A stretch of DNA of 29,083 bases from Planctomycetota bacterium (GTDB lineage: Bacteria > Planctomycetota > GCA-002687715 > DRQF01): assembly GCA_041601735.1 (NCBI GenBank), contig JBFIHP010000001.1:1-29083 (forward strand). The letters run 5' to 3'. Shown one piece after another: positions 7,456 to 18,265 of the stretch. The position numbers and the translations under genes were made by a program. Positions within the stretch are counted from its first letter, which is position 1. Each line of letters opens with the position of its first letter. The notes below the pieces were generated by a model that saw only the letters and a list, made by a program, of their open reading frames with translations, was not told where the DNA came from and made no database searches.

Positions 7456-7502
7456 TCCATCACTCCCACTCGATGTTGACCCATGGACACGGGAGTCGAA
7501 CC

Positions 7503-9809
7503 ATGCCGAGGATGCCCTTGCGTGTTCTGTCTTCGCTTCTTGTCGCGGCCGCGCTCGGCGCCGGCTCGTTCGCCCAGGTCTCGATCGTGCCCACCGAGGT
7601 GCAAATGCCGGGGACCCAGGCGCTTGAGGTCGGGACCCCGCAGTCGGTGAGCCACTGCGACAACTGTCACGGCGACTACGACCCGGCGGTCGAGCCGATG
7701 CACAACTGGTCGGGGAGCATGATGGCGCATGCCGGTCGCGACGCGATCTACTGGGCGGCCACCGCCGTGGCTGAGCAGGATTTCCCAGGTGCGGGCGATC
7801 TCTGCATCAGGTGCCACAGTCCGCGGGGCTGGTACGACGGTCACTCGACACCGACCGACGGTTCCGCGCTCGTCGCCTCGGACGGTGAAGGCGTCGAATG
7901 CGACGTCTGTCACACCATGACGAACCCCGACCGCTCCGAGCACCTCGGCACCCAGTTCGCCCCCTTCCTGGCGCACGACGGCGGCACGCCCCCGAAGGGG
8001 CACTACGGCAACGGCCAGCTCGTCCTCTGGGACGGTCAGGCGAAGCTCGGCCCCTACGCCAACGCGACCGCCAATCACCAGACGATGGCGAGTTCCTTCC
8101 ACCGGTCCTCGGAGTTCTGCGGGAGCTGTCACGACGTCTCGAATCCCGTGACCGGTGATCTGGCCCACAACTTCGGCGCCGCGCTCCCGCTGCCCGCCGG
8201 CAGCTACAGCGGCGTTCCGGGAACTCCAGTCGCCACCAAGGCGGCCTTCAACAACCCGCCCTACCGCTACGGCACCTTCGAACGCACCTTCAGCGAGCAC
8301 GTCGCGAGTGCCTTCCCGACGCTGAAGGTGAGCGACTACGGCACACTGCCCGCCGAACTGCAGGCCGGCTCCATCGCGATGGCCCGGAACGCGGCGCTCC
8401 AGGCCAGCAACGGTCAAGGCGTAGACTACGTCAGCGGCACGCGCCACTACAGCTGTCAGACCTGTCACATGCGGGCGGTCTACGGTCAGGGTTGCGACAA
8501 GAACCCGCCGTACCGGACCGATCTCCCGCTGCACGACCTGACCGGCGGCAACACCTGGATGCCGGACGTCCTCGTCTACCTCGACAACATGAACAAGCTC
8601 GTCCTCGGCGGCGGTCTGAACTCCGACCAGCTCGCGGCGCTCGCGGCCGGCAAGCTGCGGGCTCGTCAGATGCTGCAGGATGCGGCCGCGCTCGAGGTCG
8701 CCGGCAACGAGCTCAAGGTGATCAACCTCACCGGGCACAAGCTCATCTCCGGATTCCCGGAGGGTCGGCGGATGTGGTTGAACATCAAGTGGTACGACCA
8801 GGCCGGCACGCTCCTGCGCGAGGACGGCAAGTACGGCTCGATGACCGTGACGATCGACGGCAATCAGGTGCTCGTCGATACGATCCTCGATCTCGCCGGC
8901 ACCAACACGCGCATCTACGAGAGTCACGGTGCGATCACCCGGGAGTGGGCGAACCAGCTCATCGGCCTCGGCGTTCCGGCGAGCCTGCCGGTGAGCTTCG
9001 ATCGCGTCCTCGGTACGGTCAGCTACACGCTCGGCAACGTCGCGGCGCAGGCGCCCGGCACCCATCACGAGTCGCTGCGCGTCGTCCTCCTGAACTCCGT
9101 GGTGAAGGACAATCGCATCCCGCCCTTCGGCTTCCGCCACGACGACGCCCTGCAGCGCAACTGTCTGCCCGTCCCGGCGAACCAGTACGGCGATCCCGGT
9201 CCCGGCGGGGTCTACGATCACTGGGACAGCCTGCAGCTCGCGCCGCCCGCGGGGGCGGCCACGGCGACGATCGATCTGCTCTACCAGGCGACGAGCTGGG
9301 AGTTCGTGCAGTTCCTGCACCTCGCCAACGACGGCTCGATCGCCCACCTCGCGAATGCCGGCGCCGATCTTCTCGATGCCTGGCTCAACACCGGCATGGC
9401 GACGCCGGAGATCATGGCGAGCACGACCTGGACCGCGCCGCCGCCGCCGCGCGAATTCGGCATCGCCGATCTCACTTCCCTCGGTCGCGATGCCCTGGGC
9501 AATCCCGTCGTCCGGAAGACCTTCAACGCCGGCGACGGCGTCGGTCTTCGGGTCCGAGTCGAGGACACGAACGGGGCGCCCGTAGCCGACGTCGCGCTGA
9601 CGATCGAGATCCGCAGCCGCTTCGCAGAGCTGCCGCTCGCGACCCTCACGACGACGAGCGACGCGGCCGGAGAGGCCCTCGTCGTCTGGCGGTCCAAGCA
9701 GGGCATGAGGAGCGGTCGCTATCGCGCCATCATCGCGGCGGCCGTCAGATCCGGCGACTTCTTCCTGGGCGAACTCGGCGTCATGAGTCATGATTTCGAA
9801 TTGCGCTGA
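7503..9809 (+). CDS. Secreted pentaheme c-type cytochrome (c554/c552-like heme region) with C-terminal Ig-like domain
   Basis: Five CxxCH motifs: CDNCH, CIRCH, CDVCH, CGSCH, CQTCH (7656-8468). Signal peptide ending GSFA-Q. A PPPP linker leads to an Ig-like tail (LRVRVEDTNGAPV...TTSDAAGEA). Start 7503 is preferred over 7473 because of the SD. Confidence 0.9.
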   Translation: MPRMPLRVLSSLLVAAALGAGSFAQVSIVPTEVQMPGTQALEVGTPQSVSHCDNCHGDYDPAVEPMHNWSGSMMAHAGRDAIYWAATAVAEQDFPGAGDLCIRCHSPRGWYDGHSTPTDGSALVASDGEGVECDVCHTMTNPDRSEHLGTQFAPFLAHDGGTPPKGHYGNGQLVLWDGQAKLGPYANATANHQTMASSFHRSSEFCGSCHDVSNPVTGDLAHNFGAALPLPAGSYSGVPGTPVATKAAFNNPPYRYGTFERTFSEHVASAFPTLKVSDYGTLPAELQAGSIAMARNAALQASNGQGVDYVSGTRHYSCQTCHMRAVYGQGCDKNPPYRTDLPLHDLTGGNTWMPDVLVYLDNMNKLVLGGGLNSDQLAALAAGKLRARQMLQDAAALEVAGNELKVINLTGHKLISGFPEGRRMWLNIKWYDQAGTLLREDGKYGSMTVTIDGNQVLVDTILDLAGTNTRIYESHGAITREWANQLIGLGVPASLPVSFDRVLGTVSYTLGNVAAQAPGTHHESLRVVLLNSVVKDNRIPPFGFRHDDALQRNCLPVPANQYGDPGPGGVYDHWDSLQLAPPAGAATATIDLLYQATSWEFVQFLHLANDGSIAHLANAGADLLDAWLNTGMATPEIMASTTWTAPPPPREFGIADLTSLGRDALGNPVVRKTFNAGDGVGLRVRVEDTNGAPVADVALTIEIRSRFAELPLATLTTTSDAAGEALVVWRSKQGMRSGRYRAIIAAAVRSGDFFLGELGVMSHDFELR

Positions 9810-14622: not shown

Positions 14623-16680
14623 TCAGCCGCCGACGGGCCAGCGCATCTCGCGAACCAGACCCTCGGGCAGCTTCTCGAGGAAGCGGCTCGCCCGCGGCCG
14701 CGTGCAGGTGATCCAGAGCTCTTCGGTGGCTCGCGAGGCCGCGACGTAGAGCAGGCGGCGCTGACGGCGGGTCTGCTCCTCGCGATCGGCGAGCGAGTCG
14801 CTCCGGTACTCGGTCGGCAGGCTGCCCTCGTTGACGTCGAGGACGACGACCACGGGAGCCTCGAGCCCCTTCGCCGAGTGGATGGTGAGGAGCTTGCAGC
14901 GCGCGGCATCGAAGAAATCGGGGTGATCGCGATCGGCGTGATCGACCGCGGGCAGGCCCGCCGCGCGGAGGCGGCGGCCGAGGGCCTTCACGAGTCGGGT
15001 GCGCGAGGCGAGCAGCATGATGTCGCCGGGATCACGACCGCTCGCGATCGCGCGGCGAACCCGATCGATGGCGAAGTCGATCTCGGCGCCGAGGTCGAGG
15101 CAGCGGACGATCGAGGGCGGCGCGCCCTGCTTCAGCGCCGGCTCGTGACCGACCGGGTCCTCGTCGCTCTCCTCGCCATCGAGGAGGTCACCGCCCACGG
15201 CCCGCAGGAAGGCATGCAGCGGCGCGCTCTGGCGCAGATTCCGCTCGAGGCGACAGATGCGGGCCTTCAGCTTGATGTCCTTCCACTGGAAGCCGGGCCG
15301 GTAGATGTTCTGGGCCGAGTCGGCCAGGAAGACGACGCGCTCGCCGTCGGCGAGGCGGGTGCAGATGCGGAGCTTCGCCGGGCTCAGGTCCTGGGCCTCG
15401 TCGACGACGACGAGGGCGTAGCTCGGGGCGTCGGGGTCCTCCTCGAGCGCCCTGCGCGCGAGGTTGCCGAGCCGGGCCCAGTCGATCGCGGCATGCACCT
15501 CGAGAAGCTGCGCGAAGGTCTCGTGCAGGCGCCAGACGATCTCGCGCTGGCCGCGATCCAGCCTGCGCCCGCGGCCGACGCGGTCCATGCGCAGGTAGCC
15601 GTCGCGTCCGAGATCGACGCGACCAAGGATGACCTGCGAGATCTCCTCGACGAAGAAGGAGAGCGGTTCACGGAGGAAGGCGCGCCCCTTCTCGTCGAGA
15701 CCGGCCGAGACCGCGCGAACGGCCTCCTCCAGGATGCTGTCGCGGTCGGCGTTCTGCAGAAGGGTGGGGGCGAGGCCGCGCTCGCGGAGGTAGGCGACGC
15801 ACCAGTCGTCGATCGTCGCCACCTCGACGGCGCCCCTCCGGTCGCCCAGCTCGACGGCGCAGGTGTCCTCGATGAGCCGGGCGAGCGAGCGGTTGAAGCA
15901 GAGGAAGAGCACCCGGGCCCGCTCGTCGTCGGCGAAGAGGTCGCCCTGGCGGGCCTCCTTCAGGGCGATGCGGACCGCGAGGGCGGTCTTGCCGGCGCCC
16001 GCGCCGCCGCGGACGAGCTGCGGTCCGTCGATCGGCGCCTCGAGGAAGCCCCGGGCCGCGCCGTCGAGCGCGATCCTGCCGATACGCCCGCGCGGATCGA
16101 GGAGGCGGGCGACCTCCTCCTCGCTCTCGGGTTGCGCCCGGGTGACCGGTCCCTCGGCGGCGTAGAGGGCGTAGTTGAGGAGAGCGTCGGCGCGATCGGC
16201 TGCGAGGCCATCGATCTTCTCGATGTCCTCGAGTTCACGGCAGGCGCGGAGCGCCGGGAGGAAGTCGGCGTCGAGGCCGAAGGCCAGAAGCTGGTGGTCG
16301 TCGAGCTCGGCGAAGAGCGCGCTCTGCTCGCCCCAGACGGGCGCCGTCGGCTCCGCGATCAGATCGTCGGCATCGACCGACTCGATCGGACCCTCCGGGA
16401 GGCGGGTCTTCCGGGCCCGGCGATAGGCACGATCGTGGTCGTCGGCCAGCAGGACGTGAATGGTGTCGTCGCGGGGGTAGACGATCATCCGGTACTTGTC
16501 GTCGATGCGGCACTCGAAGAGGCCCTTCCGGCCCTCGTAGCGCTCGGTTCCCAGCGAGGGATGATCGTGATCGGCCGAGAGCTGAAGGAGGCTCTGGAGG
16601 ACCTTGGGTCGGATCACGAGCGGCAGGCGACGCTCGAAGTCTCTCTGGGCCCGCGGCGCGATGACGAGTTGCTTTCTCAT
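14623..16680 (-). CDS. RelE/ParE-like domain fused to UvrD-like SF1 helicase (685 aa)
   Basis: Start ATG 16680 with SD GGAGG. aa 1-90 look RelE-like (LVIAPRAQRDF...HPSL...GLFECRIDDKYRMIV...IHVL...DHD). Helicase motifs: GGAGAGKT (15985-16008), VVDEAQD, LADSAQNIY, LERNLR, LLTIHSAKGLE, LLYVAASRA. Confidence 0.88.
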   Translation of the reverse strand: MRKQLVIAPRAQRDFERRLPLVIRPKVLQSLLQLSADHDHPSLGTERYEGRKGLFECRIDDKYRMIVYPRDDTIHVLLADDHDRAYRRARKTRLPEGPIESVDADDLIAEPTAPVWGEQSALFAELDDHQLLAFGLDADFLPALRACRELEDIEKIDGLAADRADALLNYALYAAEGPVTRAQPESEEEVARLLDPRGRIGRIALDGAARGFLEAPIDGPQLVRGGAGAGKTALAVRIALKEARQGDLFADDERARVLFLCFNRSLARLIEDTCAVELGDRRGAVEVATIDDWCVAYLRERGLAPTLLQNADRDSILEEAVRAVSAGLDEKGRAFLREPLSFFVEEISQVILGRVDLGRDGYLRMDRVGRGRRLDRGQREIVWRLHETFAQLLEVHAAIDWARLGNLARRALEEDPDAPSYALVVVDEAQDLSPAKLRICTRLADGERVVFLADSAQNIYRPGFQWKDIKLKARICRLERNLRQSAPLHAFLRAVGGDLLDGEESDEDPVGHEPALKQGAPPSIVRCLDLGAEIDFAIDRVRRAIASGRDPGDIMLLASRTRLVKALGRRLRAAGLPAVDHADRDHPDFFDAARCKLLTIHSAKGLEAPVVVVLDVNEGSLPTEYRSDSLADREEQTRRQRRLLYVAASRATEELWITCTRPRASRFLEKLPEGLVREMRWPVGG

Positions 16681-16698
16681 CGAGACCCTCCACGACCT

Positions 16699-16725
16699 GC
16701 CCGGGAGTCTACCAGAGTCCCGGGC
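16699..16725 (-). promoter_or_regulatory. Extended -10 (TGGTAGACT, 16714-16706) embedded in an 8-bp inverted repeat
   Basis: GCCCGGGA-N11-TCCCGGGC encloses and partly overlaps the -10 element. SD GGAGG and ATG 16680 follow. Confidence 0.5.
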
Positions 16726-16738
16726 GGGCGGGCGCGGC

Positions 16739-18265
16739 TCAACGCTCCTCGAAGGGCTTGCCGGTGACGTGCAGGGCGGGCTTGCGCATCGAGAAGATGA
16801 AGGCGGTGACGGCGCTGGCGAAGAGCCGCGAGTCGGCGCCGTAGCCGGCGTTGTCGCGATTGGGCTGGTAGTAGAAGCTGCCGTCGGGGCAACGCGCGAG
16901 CGTGAACCACCAGCGGTTGGCGTCCATCTGCTTCCGGAAGCCATCGGGGTCCACCCTCGCGCCCATCGCGGCGAAGCCCATGCCCATGAGCGGGGAACCG
17001 TGCGTGTCGGGGAAGCTCTCGGGGTGTTCGCCCATGATCCGGGCCTGACGCAGGGAGAGGGCGGCGTAGCCCTCGTCCTGGAAGGGCAGAAGGTGCAGCG
17101 CGATGGCCGAGGCGCCGGTCCGACCCATGTCGGCCCACTTGTCGTCGCCCGCGACGCTGTCCTCGTACCAGAGGTAGCCGTTCTTGCCGGTGCCGCGGGC
17201 GAGGAAGTCGCAGGCCGCTCGCAGGCGCTCGCGGTCGATCTCGATCCCGCAGTGGTCCATGAGGGCGAGGGAGAGCGCGCCCTGGGCGGTGATCATGCTG
17301 ATCGCGCCGTAGCCCTCGTGCCCCGGATTGTGGCCCCAGCCGCCGCGCTTCTGGCCCTGCTTCTTCGGCACGCTGCCGGGGTGCGATTCGCGCGCCTTCG
17401 GGTTGATCTGCTCGGGGTCCATGTACTGGCTCGAAACCAGGAAGTCGCGGATCTGCATCAGCTCGCGATCGACCCACCTCTTGCCCGTCGCCAGGCGGTA
17501 TTCGGCGAGGACGATCGCCGCGGTCATGTAGCGCCAGTTGATGAGCGAGGACGCGTCCTCGGCCGCGGTCGTGCGGGCGTGGTACCTGACGTTCTTCTCG
17601 ACGGCCGCAAGGTACTTCCGTTCGCCGCTCGCGAGCAGGGCGAGCGGGGCGAAGAGATCGATCGGCGGGCTGCCCCAGGAACCGTCGCTCCTCTGATGGT
17701 CGGCGAGATAGCGGCAGAGTTCGGCGAGGATGCGTTCGCTCTTCGGACAGTCCATCGGGAAGGTCGGCGCGTAGTTGCCATGACGTGTGCCGAGTTCGAT
17801 CGGCCGAACGATCTCCTTCTCGCCGCGGCGGATGCGCAGACGCAACCAGCCGTTGCCGCCCTGGCCCTGGGTCGACTCGATGGCCCGGGCGAACTCGAGG
17901 ATCGGGCCATGGGGGCCGAAGACCTCCATGCCGTAGCCGTTCCGGTGCTCGGTCGCGAACTCCTCCTCTTCGATTCCGATGATGACGTCGCCGGTCTTGA
18001 TCGCGCGCGCGGCCGGCGACCTCTCGAGAACGTGACGGACCAGCAGGTGCTTCGGCTCGTCCTTCATCAGCTCGACCCGGAGCCCGGTGACGCCGAGGTT
18101 GTAGAACCAGCCCTCGACCTCGGCGTCCGGGCCCTTTGCGGCCTTGTTCGACCAGGGCCGTCCGTCCTCGTGGTAGTGGACCTGCGCCCCGAGGAGGCCG
18201 GAGACGAGGCAGATGACTGCGAGGGTGGCGGCGATTCGAGCGGTCGGGGGCGAGGTCGTCTGCAT
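16739..18265 (-). CDS. DUF6288-like secreted protein: PDZ-like domain + alpha/alpha-toroid (prenyltransferase/squalene-cyclase-like fold)
   Basis: Signal peptide ending LLGA-Q. WFYNLGVTGLR, LLVRHVLERSPAARAIKTGDVIIGI (PDZ-like), HQRSDGSWG, GGWGH, RCPDGSFYYQPNRD. SD GGAG, and extended -10 TGGTATCCT at 18300-18292. Confidence 0.72.
   Translation of the reverse strand: MQTTSPPTARIAATLAVICLVSGLLGAQVHYHEDGRPWSNKAAKGPDAEVEGWFYNLGVTGLRVELMKDEPKHLLVRHVLERSPAARAIKTGDVIIGIEEEEFATEHRNGYGMEVFGPHGPILEFARAIESTQGQGGNGWLRLRIRRGEKEIVRPIELGTRHGNYAPTFPMDCPKSERILAELCRYLADHQRSDGSWGSPPIDLFAPLALLASGERKYLAAVEKNVRYHARTTAAEDASSLINWRYMTAAIVLAEYRLATGKRWVDRELMQIRDFLVSSQYMDPEQINPKARESHPGSVPKKQGQKRGGWGHNPGHEGYGAISMITAQGALSLALMDHCGIEIDRERLRAACDFLARGTGKNGYLWYEDSVAGDDKWADMGRTGASAIALHLLPFQDEGYAALSLRQARIMGEHPESFPDTHGSPLMGMGFAAMGARVDPDGFRKQMDANRWWFTLARCPDGSFYYQPNRDNAGYGADSRLFASAVTAFIFSMRKPALHVTGKPFEER

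Follow-up and report, generated by a model that had tools for sequence, protein, structure and literature searches.

A solo, divergent ArmD-family protein with a RelE-fold domain and a UvrD-like helicase core in a planctomycetote genome

A stretch of 29,083 nucleotides from a Planctomycetota bacterium (GenBank assembly GCA_041601735.1, contig JBFIHP010000001.1, positions 1 to 29,083; hereafter the window) carries a minus-strand gene (14623..16680) whose 685-amino acid product joins an N-terminal RelE-fold domain to a UvrD-like superfamily 1 (SF1) helicase. A first-pass annotation, made from the letters alone, had noted this combination and mentioned that RelE-SF1 helicase fusions had been described before. 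Such fusions do exist: the architecture is not new and is that of ArmD from ARMADA type II, a system already examined experimentally for phage defence. Within the ArmD family the window copy is rare, solo and divergent, and its nucleotide pocket is remodelled. We favor the view, with a probability of about 60%, that it is an ArmD-like effector that acts in conflict on its own, with the helicase body holding the RelE domain in check in cis, by a mechanism that we infer.

ARMADA type II consists of ArmA (BrxHII-like), ArmB (a PglX-like methyltransferase), ArmC (YprA-like) and, as the fourth component, ArmD, a RelE-like domain fused to a GajB/UvrD-like SF1 NTPase (10.1101/2025.09.15.676423). In enterohaemorrhagic Escherichia coli (EHEC) the system is located on O-island 172 (10.1101/2025.09.22.677730). 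The window protein is 27% identical to Sakai ECs_5264 (ArmD) across residues 18-660 (BLASTP, E 6e-43), and the family profile aligned with ArmD over 677 columns at an hhalign probability of 100 (E 8e-101). Approximately 25 full-length proteins of ca. 690 amino acids share the layout, several of which are named 'SF1 helicase / RelE' by the Joint Genome Institute. Like ArmD of E. coli O157:H7 (Z5902 / ECs_5264), the window protein has a RelE-like domain, a linker, a helical domain and a GajB/UvrD-like core in the same order, with conserved RelE-type residues and Walker motifs, and is without an antitoxin. Unlike ArmD, it is not accompanied by ArmA, ArmB or ArmC, belongs to a separate, long-stemmed clade, sits in a non-defence neighbourhood, and has a pocket altered at four places (Q to A, NYR to NLR, GD to AD and TRA to SRA).

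Domain architecture of the window protein

Residues 1-92 (16405..16680; all features of the gene are on the minus strand) are confidently modelled as a RelE/YoeB fold, on the evidence of profiles, an AlphaFold2 model, a Foldseek search and an alignment. Both the compact fold of ca. 90 residues typical of the RelE/ParE superfamily and profile similarity to it are present in this region. Searches of Pfam, PADLOC and NCBIfam with the N-terminal domain alone gave nothing usable; because single-sequence searches were uninformative, homolog profiles and structure were needed. An exhaustive phmmer search with residues 1-110 matched stand-alone proteins of 85-90 amino acids, which carry ParE_like, ParE_toxin, HigB and Gp49 domains, and those of ca. 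87 amino acids have an HPSL...YR...HD pattern in common with the N-terminal domain. When these stand-alone proteins were included, the profile matched RelE3 (3bpq) at 1.6e-10, as well as RelE and YoeB; when it was built from the fusion proteins only, it matched T. thermophilus RelE (2khe) at 0.0027 and YoeB at 0.0066. The solved structure of RelK was also among the profile matches.

In the AlphaFold2 model, which was computed from a 25-sequence alignment, residues 1-90 have a predicted local distance difference test (pLDDT) score above 90 and run beta-alpha-alpha-beta-beta-beta-alpha, which is the RelE order. A fold search of these residues had been suggested as a check on the RelE assignment, and the assignment passed it: the top Foldseek matches were YafQ, RelE, YoeB and HP0894 (template modelling score on the target 0.65-0.82, probability 1.0), with YafQ, RelE and YoeB at 0.76-0.82, ParE2 lower in the list and Cami1 also matched. 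A hidden Markov model alignment to ribosome-bound E. coli RelE (4v7k) equates R58 with K54, R64 with R61 and H82 with R81, and places Y86 near the position of Y87. Throughout the family, E. coli ArmD included, R58 and R64 do not vary and H82, D83 and Y86 hardly do. By these alignments, the domain has the basic, His and Tyr residues expected of a RelE-type mRNA interferase rather than of a ParE gyrase poison. In fold and catalytic-type residues the domain resembles the type II toxins RelE, YoeB and YafQ; however, those are proteins of ca. 90 amino acids encoded beside an antitoxin gene, whereas the window domain is joined covalently to approximately 590 more residues.

The linker that follows (residues ca. 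96-120; 16321..16395) is predicted to be disordered (pLDDT <50), with AlphaFold2 placing the disorder at residues 96-117 and a helical domain then at ca. 128-215. This conserved helical domain (residues ca. 125-215; 16036..16308) occurs in E. coli ArmD too. A search with residues 118-215 gave no Pfam match, and Atlas matches of at most 0.82, which is under the useful range.

Residues 217-672 (14665..16032) constitute a UvrD/PcrA-like SF1 helicase core according to Pfam, PADLOC and fold searches. Pfam assigned UvrD-helicase to residues 217-461 and UvrD_C to residues 593-660, and the best PADLOC models, 'NERD+UvrD' and GajB (GajB at ca. 1e-20), covered the helicase part only. The full-length AlphaFold2 model (pLDDT 80.7) is nearest in fold to UvrD, PcrA and Rep (E ca. 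1e-22; UvrD 2is4, 6.9e-23); the 50 listed matches from the PDB were UvrD, PcrA, Rep and other SF1 helicases, with no GajB entry among them. The RecA-like 1A/2A fold is present, along with motifs I, II, III, IV, V and VI. The alignment places Walker A (motif I, GAGAGKTA, with K231) at 15985..16008, Walker B (motif II, VVVDEAQD) at 15388..15411 and motif IV (RNLRQS) at 15226..15243. The original description of a RelE-like N-terminal domain and a full SF1 motif set in one protein is thus upheld by the profiles, the AlphaFold2 model, Foldseek, Pfam and the motif table.

The window clade and its nucleotide pocket

Three groups were resolved in a maximum-likelihood tree of the family. The window protein (P0001) groups with P0003, P0004, P0005 and P0046 in a clade with support of 100/99 and a long stem (the window clade). 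A second clade holds the ArmC-linked proteins, including E. coli ArmD and those of the genomes G007 and G039, and the third is large and carries an FWSVR sequence motif. Members of the window clade are 38-54% identical to each other and come from at least two phyla, with Vicinamibacterales, by NCBI name, among them. The genomes of 60 relatives contained full-length matches (frames of ca. 700 amino acids) in four cases, plus one frame of 403 amino acids, and none within the same genus.

The Q-motif position of the window protein (residues 203-214, IALDGAARGFLE; 16039..16074) reads LDGAAR where relatives have FLHPxQR, and AARGFL where they have xQRxLV, so that Ala stands in place of the Gln found in other family members. 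The first-pass annotation had suspected this replacement by eye, and the family alignment confirms it. Only in the window clade is the Gln replaced, by A or H, leaving these proteins without the glutamine of the SF1A Q motif. Three further changes are confined to this clade: GD to AD in motif III, NYR(T/S) to NLRQ in motif IV, where Leu takes the place of Tyr, and TRA to SRA in motif VI. The clade retains Walker A and B, Q457 of motif III, R483 and R650, and its five sequences are identical in 126 columns. In PcrA/UvrD structures, two residues contact adenine specifically, the Gln of the Q motif and the Tyr of motif IV. Because the five proteins keep the same substitutions together with 126 invariant columns, purifying selection appears to have acted on a changed but working pocket; thus, from the sequences, the pocket reads as a functional one with altered base preference rather than one in decay. 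Loss of both adenine-reading residues suggests that nucleotide use is relaxed or changed, and this paired loss provides a concrete biochemical prediction on the nucleotide specificity of the window clade.

The genomic neighbours of the five members are varied. P0003 is found near AbiEi/AbiEii and a transposase, P0005 near an McrB-like AAA_5 gene, P0046 near UvrD, dynamin-like, SNF2, DEAD-DUF559 and HNH genes, P0004 near an RNase_T-WYL gene, and the window gene among housekeeping-type genes. No neighbour is common to all five, and neither ArmC nor a large methyltransferase lies near any of them.

Contexts across the family were counted in the 80 best loci of species-representative genomes, sought with the clade alignment. 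A RelE domain is present at 70 of these loci. ArmC lies directly upstream at 22 of the 70, an N6_N4 methyltransferase of ca. 1000 amino acids lies upstream at 16, and 32 have neither, which indicates that solo or differently partnered ArmD-like genes are common. Many of these 32 adjoin McrB-like+DUF4357, N6 methyltransferase, kinase-TPR or convergent YprA-like genes. The window clade was not encountered in the set, whose nearest loci are only 30% identical and keep the Q. A survey of homolog neighbourhoods had been proposed at the outset, and it places the family overwhelmingly in defence or toxin-antitoxin contexts.

Solo status and proposed mode of action

The claim that the gene lacks an antitoxin is borne out. 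A DUF6288+PDZ gene upstream on the same strand (16739-18265) ends 58 nt before the ATG of the fusion gene (gap at 16681..16738), and a convergent YaiI/DUF188 gene downstream ends 48 nt from it. Neither gap has room for an antitoxin gene, so the adjacent antitoxin of a type II toxin-antitoxin module is absent. Nor did Pfam find antitoxin, restriction-modification or mobile-element families in 20 window open reading frames (ORFs; 11 of the 20 had no family match, and the end ORFs were excluded), in line with the initial description of the neighbours. ArmA, ArmB and ArmC are all absent from the window, which consequently has no armA-armB-armC-armD operon of the ARMADA type II kind, and no MZB-domain, YprA or ArmC-like match was found in the organism's own genome (4.1 Mb, 869 contigs, 85% complete). 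In contrast, ArmC overlaps ArmD by 4 nt in G007 and G039, as it does in E. coli. In these two genomes, one from the window's taxonomic family and one from its phylum, true ArmC-ArmD pairs (L017, G007:C41, 1498-9938; L018, G039:C19, 7281-15748) comprise a DruE3-like protein of ca. 2100 amino acids in 4-nt overlap with the RelE-UvrD gene. Thus, ARMADA-type and solo forms both occur in the window's lineage.

Acting in conflict or defence as a single polypeptide, the window protein would use its UvrD-like module to engage a nucleic-acid cue. As with GajB and the helicases of Druantia and ARMADA, this cue would probably be single-stranded DNA ends or intermediates of the replication type. An NTP-driven rearrangement would then free the RelE domain, or position it, for RNA cutting; the target could be mRNA on the ribosome, as for RelE and Cami1, or else RNA that the motor encounters on the strand it tracks. 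At rest, the RelE domain would be kept harmless by docking on the helicase body, not by an antitoxin. Co-folding of residues 1-95 with residues 120-685 gave an ipSAE of 0.51 (runs 0.45-0.55), against 0.00 in three controls, which passes a mark that 58 of 80 solved complexes also cleared, as did 2 of 110 mismatched pairs, with passes at or below 0.60 being more often wrong than right. Contact agreement between runs was at least 73% and partner pLDDT at least 79. This predicted docking of the N-terminal domain on the rest of the protein hints, weakly, at control in cis, and it is to this extent that the early suggestion of a helicase licensing the toxin domain stands.

Cami1, a CARF-RelE protein, is a cA4-activated ribosome-dependent mRNase that is active on ribosomes without an antitoxin, and it serves as an earlier example of a RelE domain that is joined to a sensor and has no antitoxin. 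Like Cami1 (PDB 8phj/8phb), the window protein joins a RelE-fold domain to a sensor domain; however, Cami1 senses cyclic oligoadenylate through a CARF domain and has no SF1 helicase in that role, and homology is limited to the RelE fold. GajB of Gabija similarly employs a UvrD-like sensor NTPase in defence, and the PADLOC GajB models match the window helicase core, but GajB has no RelE domain and is partnered by the GajA nuclease (OLD/TOPRIM). The genes adjoining the window fusion are DUF6288 and YaiI, not GajA-type, although no direct search for GajA was made. Going further, we propose tentatively, and at well below even odds, that in the rare ArmD-like clade one gene has come to suffice as an immune or abortive-infection device, in which a UvrD-like NTPase, its pocket remodelled and no longer adenine-specific, keeps a RelE-type ribosome-dependent RNase inactive in cis until the motor encounters a foreign nucleic-acid structure. 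A type II toxin would then be under control without an antitoxin.

Several observations weigh against a self-contained effector. None of the four ARMADA II genes is dispensable for anti-phage defence, and neither is K266, the Walker A lysine of ArmD (10.1101/2025.09.15.676423); in EHEC, the ΔarmD strain shows a smaller effect than the deletion strains of the other three genes (10.1101/2025.09.15.676423, 10.1101/2025.09.22.677730). RNase activity is reported for no ArmD RelE domain in the ARMADA papers that we found (10.1101/2025.09.15.676423, 10.1101/2025.09.22.677730), in which the ArmD mutants concern ATPase motifs only (10.1101/2025.09.15.676423). A Pfam search with the first 100 residues as a single sequence returned ParE_like only, at E 0.1, and no defence or mobile-element context is seen in the window around the fusion gene. 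Finally, because the genome is 85% complete and in 869 contigs, partner genes could be unassembled. The single-gene defence system first proposed is therefore upheld in part: the lack of an antitoxin or conserved partner and the defence contexts of homologs speak for it, whereas the characterised ArmD requires ArmA, ArmB and ArmC (10.1101/2025.09.15.676423). Since every gene of that four-gene operon is required, autonomy is something that we propose for the orphan clade, and not a property of the family. As to ribosome rescue, the other role first suggested, the analysis gave no evidence in either direction.

A first alternative is a gene that is inactive alone and belongs to a multi-gene system with partners elsewhere in the genome, be they ArmABC, a YprA/DruE-type helicase or a methyltransferase. 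The dependence of the known ArmD on its three partners, the upstream ArmC or ca. 1000-amino acid N6_N4 methyltransferase at 22 and 16 of the 70 RelE-bearing loci, and the fragmented, incomplete genome all fit this explanation. We nonetheless consider it rather unlikely, as the assembly has no MZB or ArmC-like match, the five clade members lack a nearby ArmC or large methyltransferase and have no common neighbour, and the window clade is phylogenetically apart from the ArmC-linked ArmDs. Alternatively, the N-terminal domain might have lost nuclease activity, or never had it, and be a ParE-like or RelE-fold tether to the ribosome, gyrase or nucleic acid, which would make the protein a specialised helicase for repair or RNA-DNA surveillance. 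That ParE_like is the only direct Pfam match, that the locus has a housekeeping look and that the ARMADA papers found report no ArmD RNase activity would agree with such a role. Nevertheless, RelE catalytic-position residues are kept across clades only ca. 25% identical, the structural matches are overwhelmingly mRNA interferases (RelE, YoeB and YafQ, with ParE2 only lower), the patchy distribution among relatives is unlike that of a housekeeping gene, and family members elsewhere lie in defence islands, all of which make a binding module improbable.

Least probable, and in our judgment very much so, is that the gene was left over when an ARMADA-like island lost its other genes, and is now decaying and becoming inactive. 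Among the signs of decay would be the lost Q motif, together with the replaced motif IV Tyr, AD for GD in motif III, SRA for TRA in motif VI and the isolation of the gene among unrelated ones. Yet the frame of 685 codons is unbroken and a good ribosome-binding site precedes it, the substitutions are common to five proteins at 38-54% identity from at least two phyla, and the 126 invariant columns, which include Walker A/B, Q457, R483 and R650, point to purifying selection.

No part of ARMADA II is understood less well than the RelE-like domain of ArmD, and a solo ArmD-like protein is the simplest setting for asking how a RelE-type toxin stays silent without an antitoxin and what the helicase senses. 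If the solo protein does defend alone, a compact single-gene system would be added and the fourth ARMADA component would be shown to be capable of acting as an independent module.

Gene surroundings and related loci

A Shine-Dalgarno-like GGAGGG (16686..16691) can be read from the sequence 5 nt ahead of the ATG at 16680. A longer frame of 773 amino acids from an ATG at 16944 was rejected: it overlaps the DUF6288 gene, is low-complexity in character and lacks a ribosome-binding site such as that seen at 16686-16691. Because the same-strand upstream gene stops at 16739, this frame was not taken as the gene. The first-pass annotation had also given the gene its own promoter, which we could not corroborate; a scan for the sigma-70 consensus gave no site, and the 58-nt same-strand gap makes co-transcription with the DUF6288 gene possible. 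Within this gap, directly before the ribosome-binding site, is a 7-bp palindrome with an 11-nt loop (CCCGGGA...TCCCGGG; 16700-16724, minus strand) that could be a hairpin or operator.

Other genes in the window encode a Ser/Thr kinase-FGE protein, a cytochrome-like protein, an alcohol dehydrogenase, an FG-GAP protein, a TonB-dependent receptor and a DUF885 protein. Neither tRNA genes nor flanking repeats that would mark a mobile element were found at the locus. Synteny was examined for signs of insertion: the same-genus genome G001 has no match to the DUF6288 or YaiI flanking protein, and G004 has both genes on different contigs, with the surroundings of its DUF6288 copy otherwise unlike the window. 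At 7473-9809 (plus strand), ca. 4.8 kb from the fusion gene, the window encodes a 778-amino acid protein with a weak multihaem-cytochrome signature. A 55%-identical homolog lies at L001 319-2628, ca. 3.4 kb from the P0004 helicase gene and in the other relative orientation; its presence near both helicase genes probably reflects shared taxonomy, not a functional link.

Elsewhere in the family, RelE-UvrD genes of the FWSVR clade lie downstream of a conserved N6_N4 methyltransferase of ca. 1000 amino acids (PADLOC MTase_III PDLC03632), with no ArmC present, at L002, L013, L020, L021, L030, L040, L041, L045, L049, L051, L053-L055, L066, L070, L073, L076, L078, L082 and L087 (and L092). The methyltransferases at L002, L013, L020 and L021 are 52-75% identical, and their spacing from the RelE-UvrD gene ranges from an 8-nt overlap (L020) to ca. 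5 kb. The methyltransferase and ArmD-like gene may form a separate module, of which we found no description. At L048 (12224-17353) and L072 (Nocardia), a gene for a 1709-amino acid DEAD+MZB (YprA-like) protein is convergent with the RelE-UvrD gene and within 30 nt of its end, unlike the ARMADA II order. Six actinomycete loci, mostly from Streptomyces (L052, L056, L063, L084, L097 and L104), have a gene for an McrB-like AAA_5+DUF4357 protein ca. 2.5-3.5 kb upstream of RelE-UvrD, and at L052, L063, L084, L096, L097 and L104 a related convergent gene lies directly downstream of RelE-UvrD, the L052 copy encoding an N6 DNA methyltransferase. These actinomycete McrB-like/DUF4357 and RelE-UvrD loci may represent another conserved island or system.

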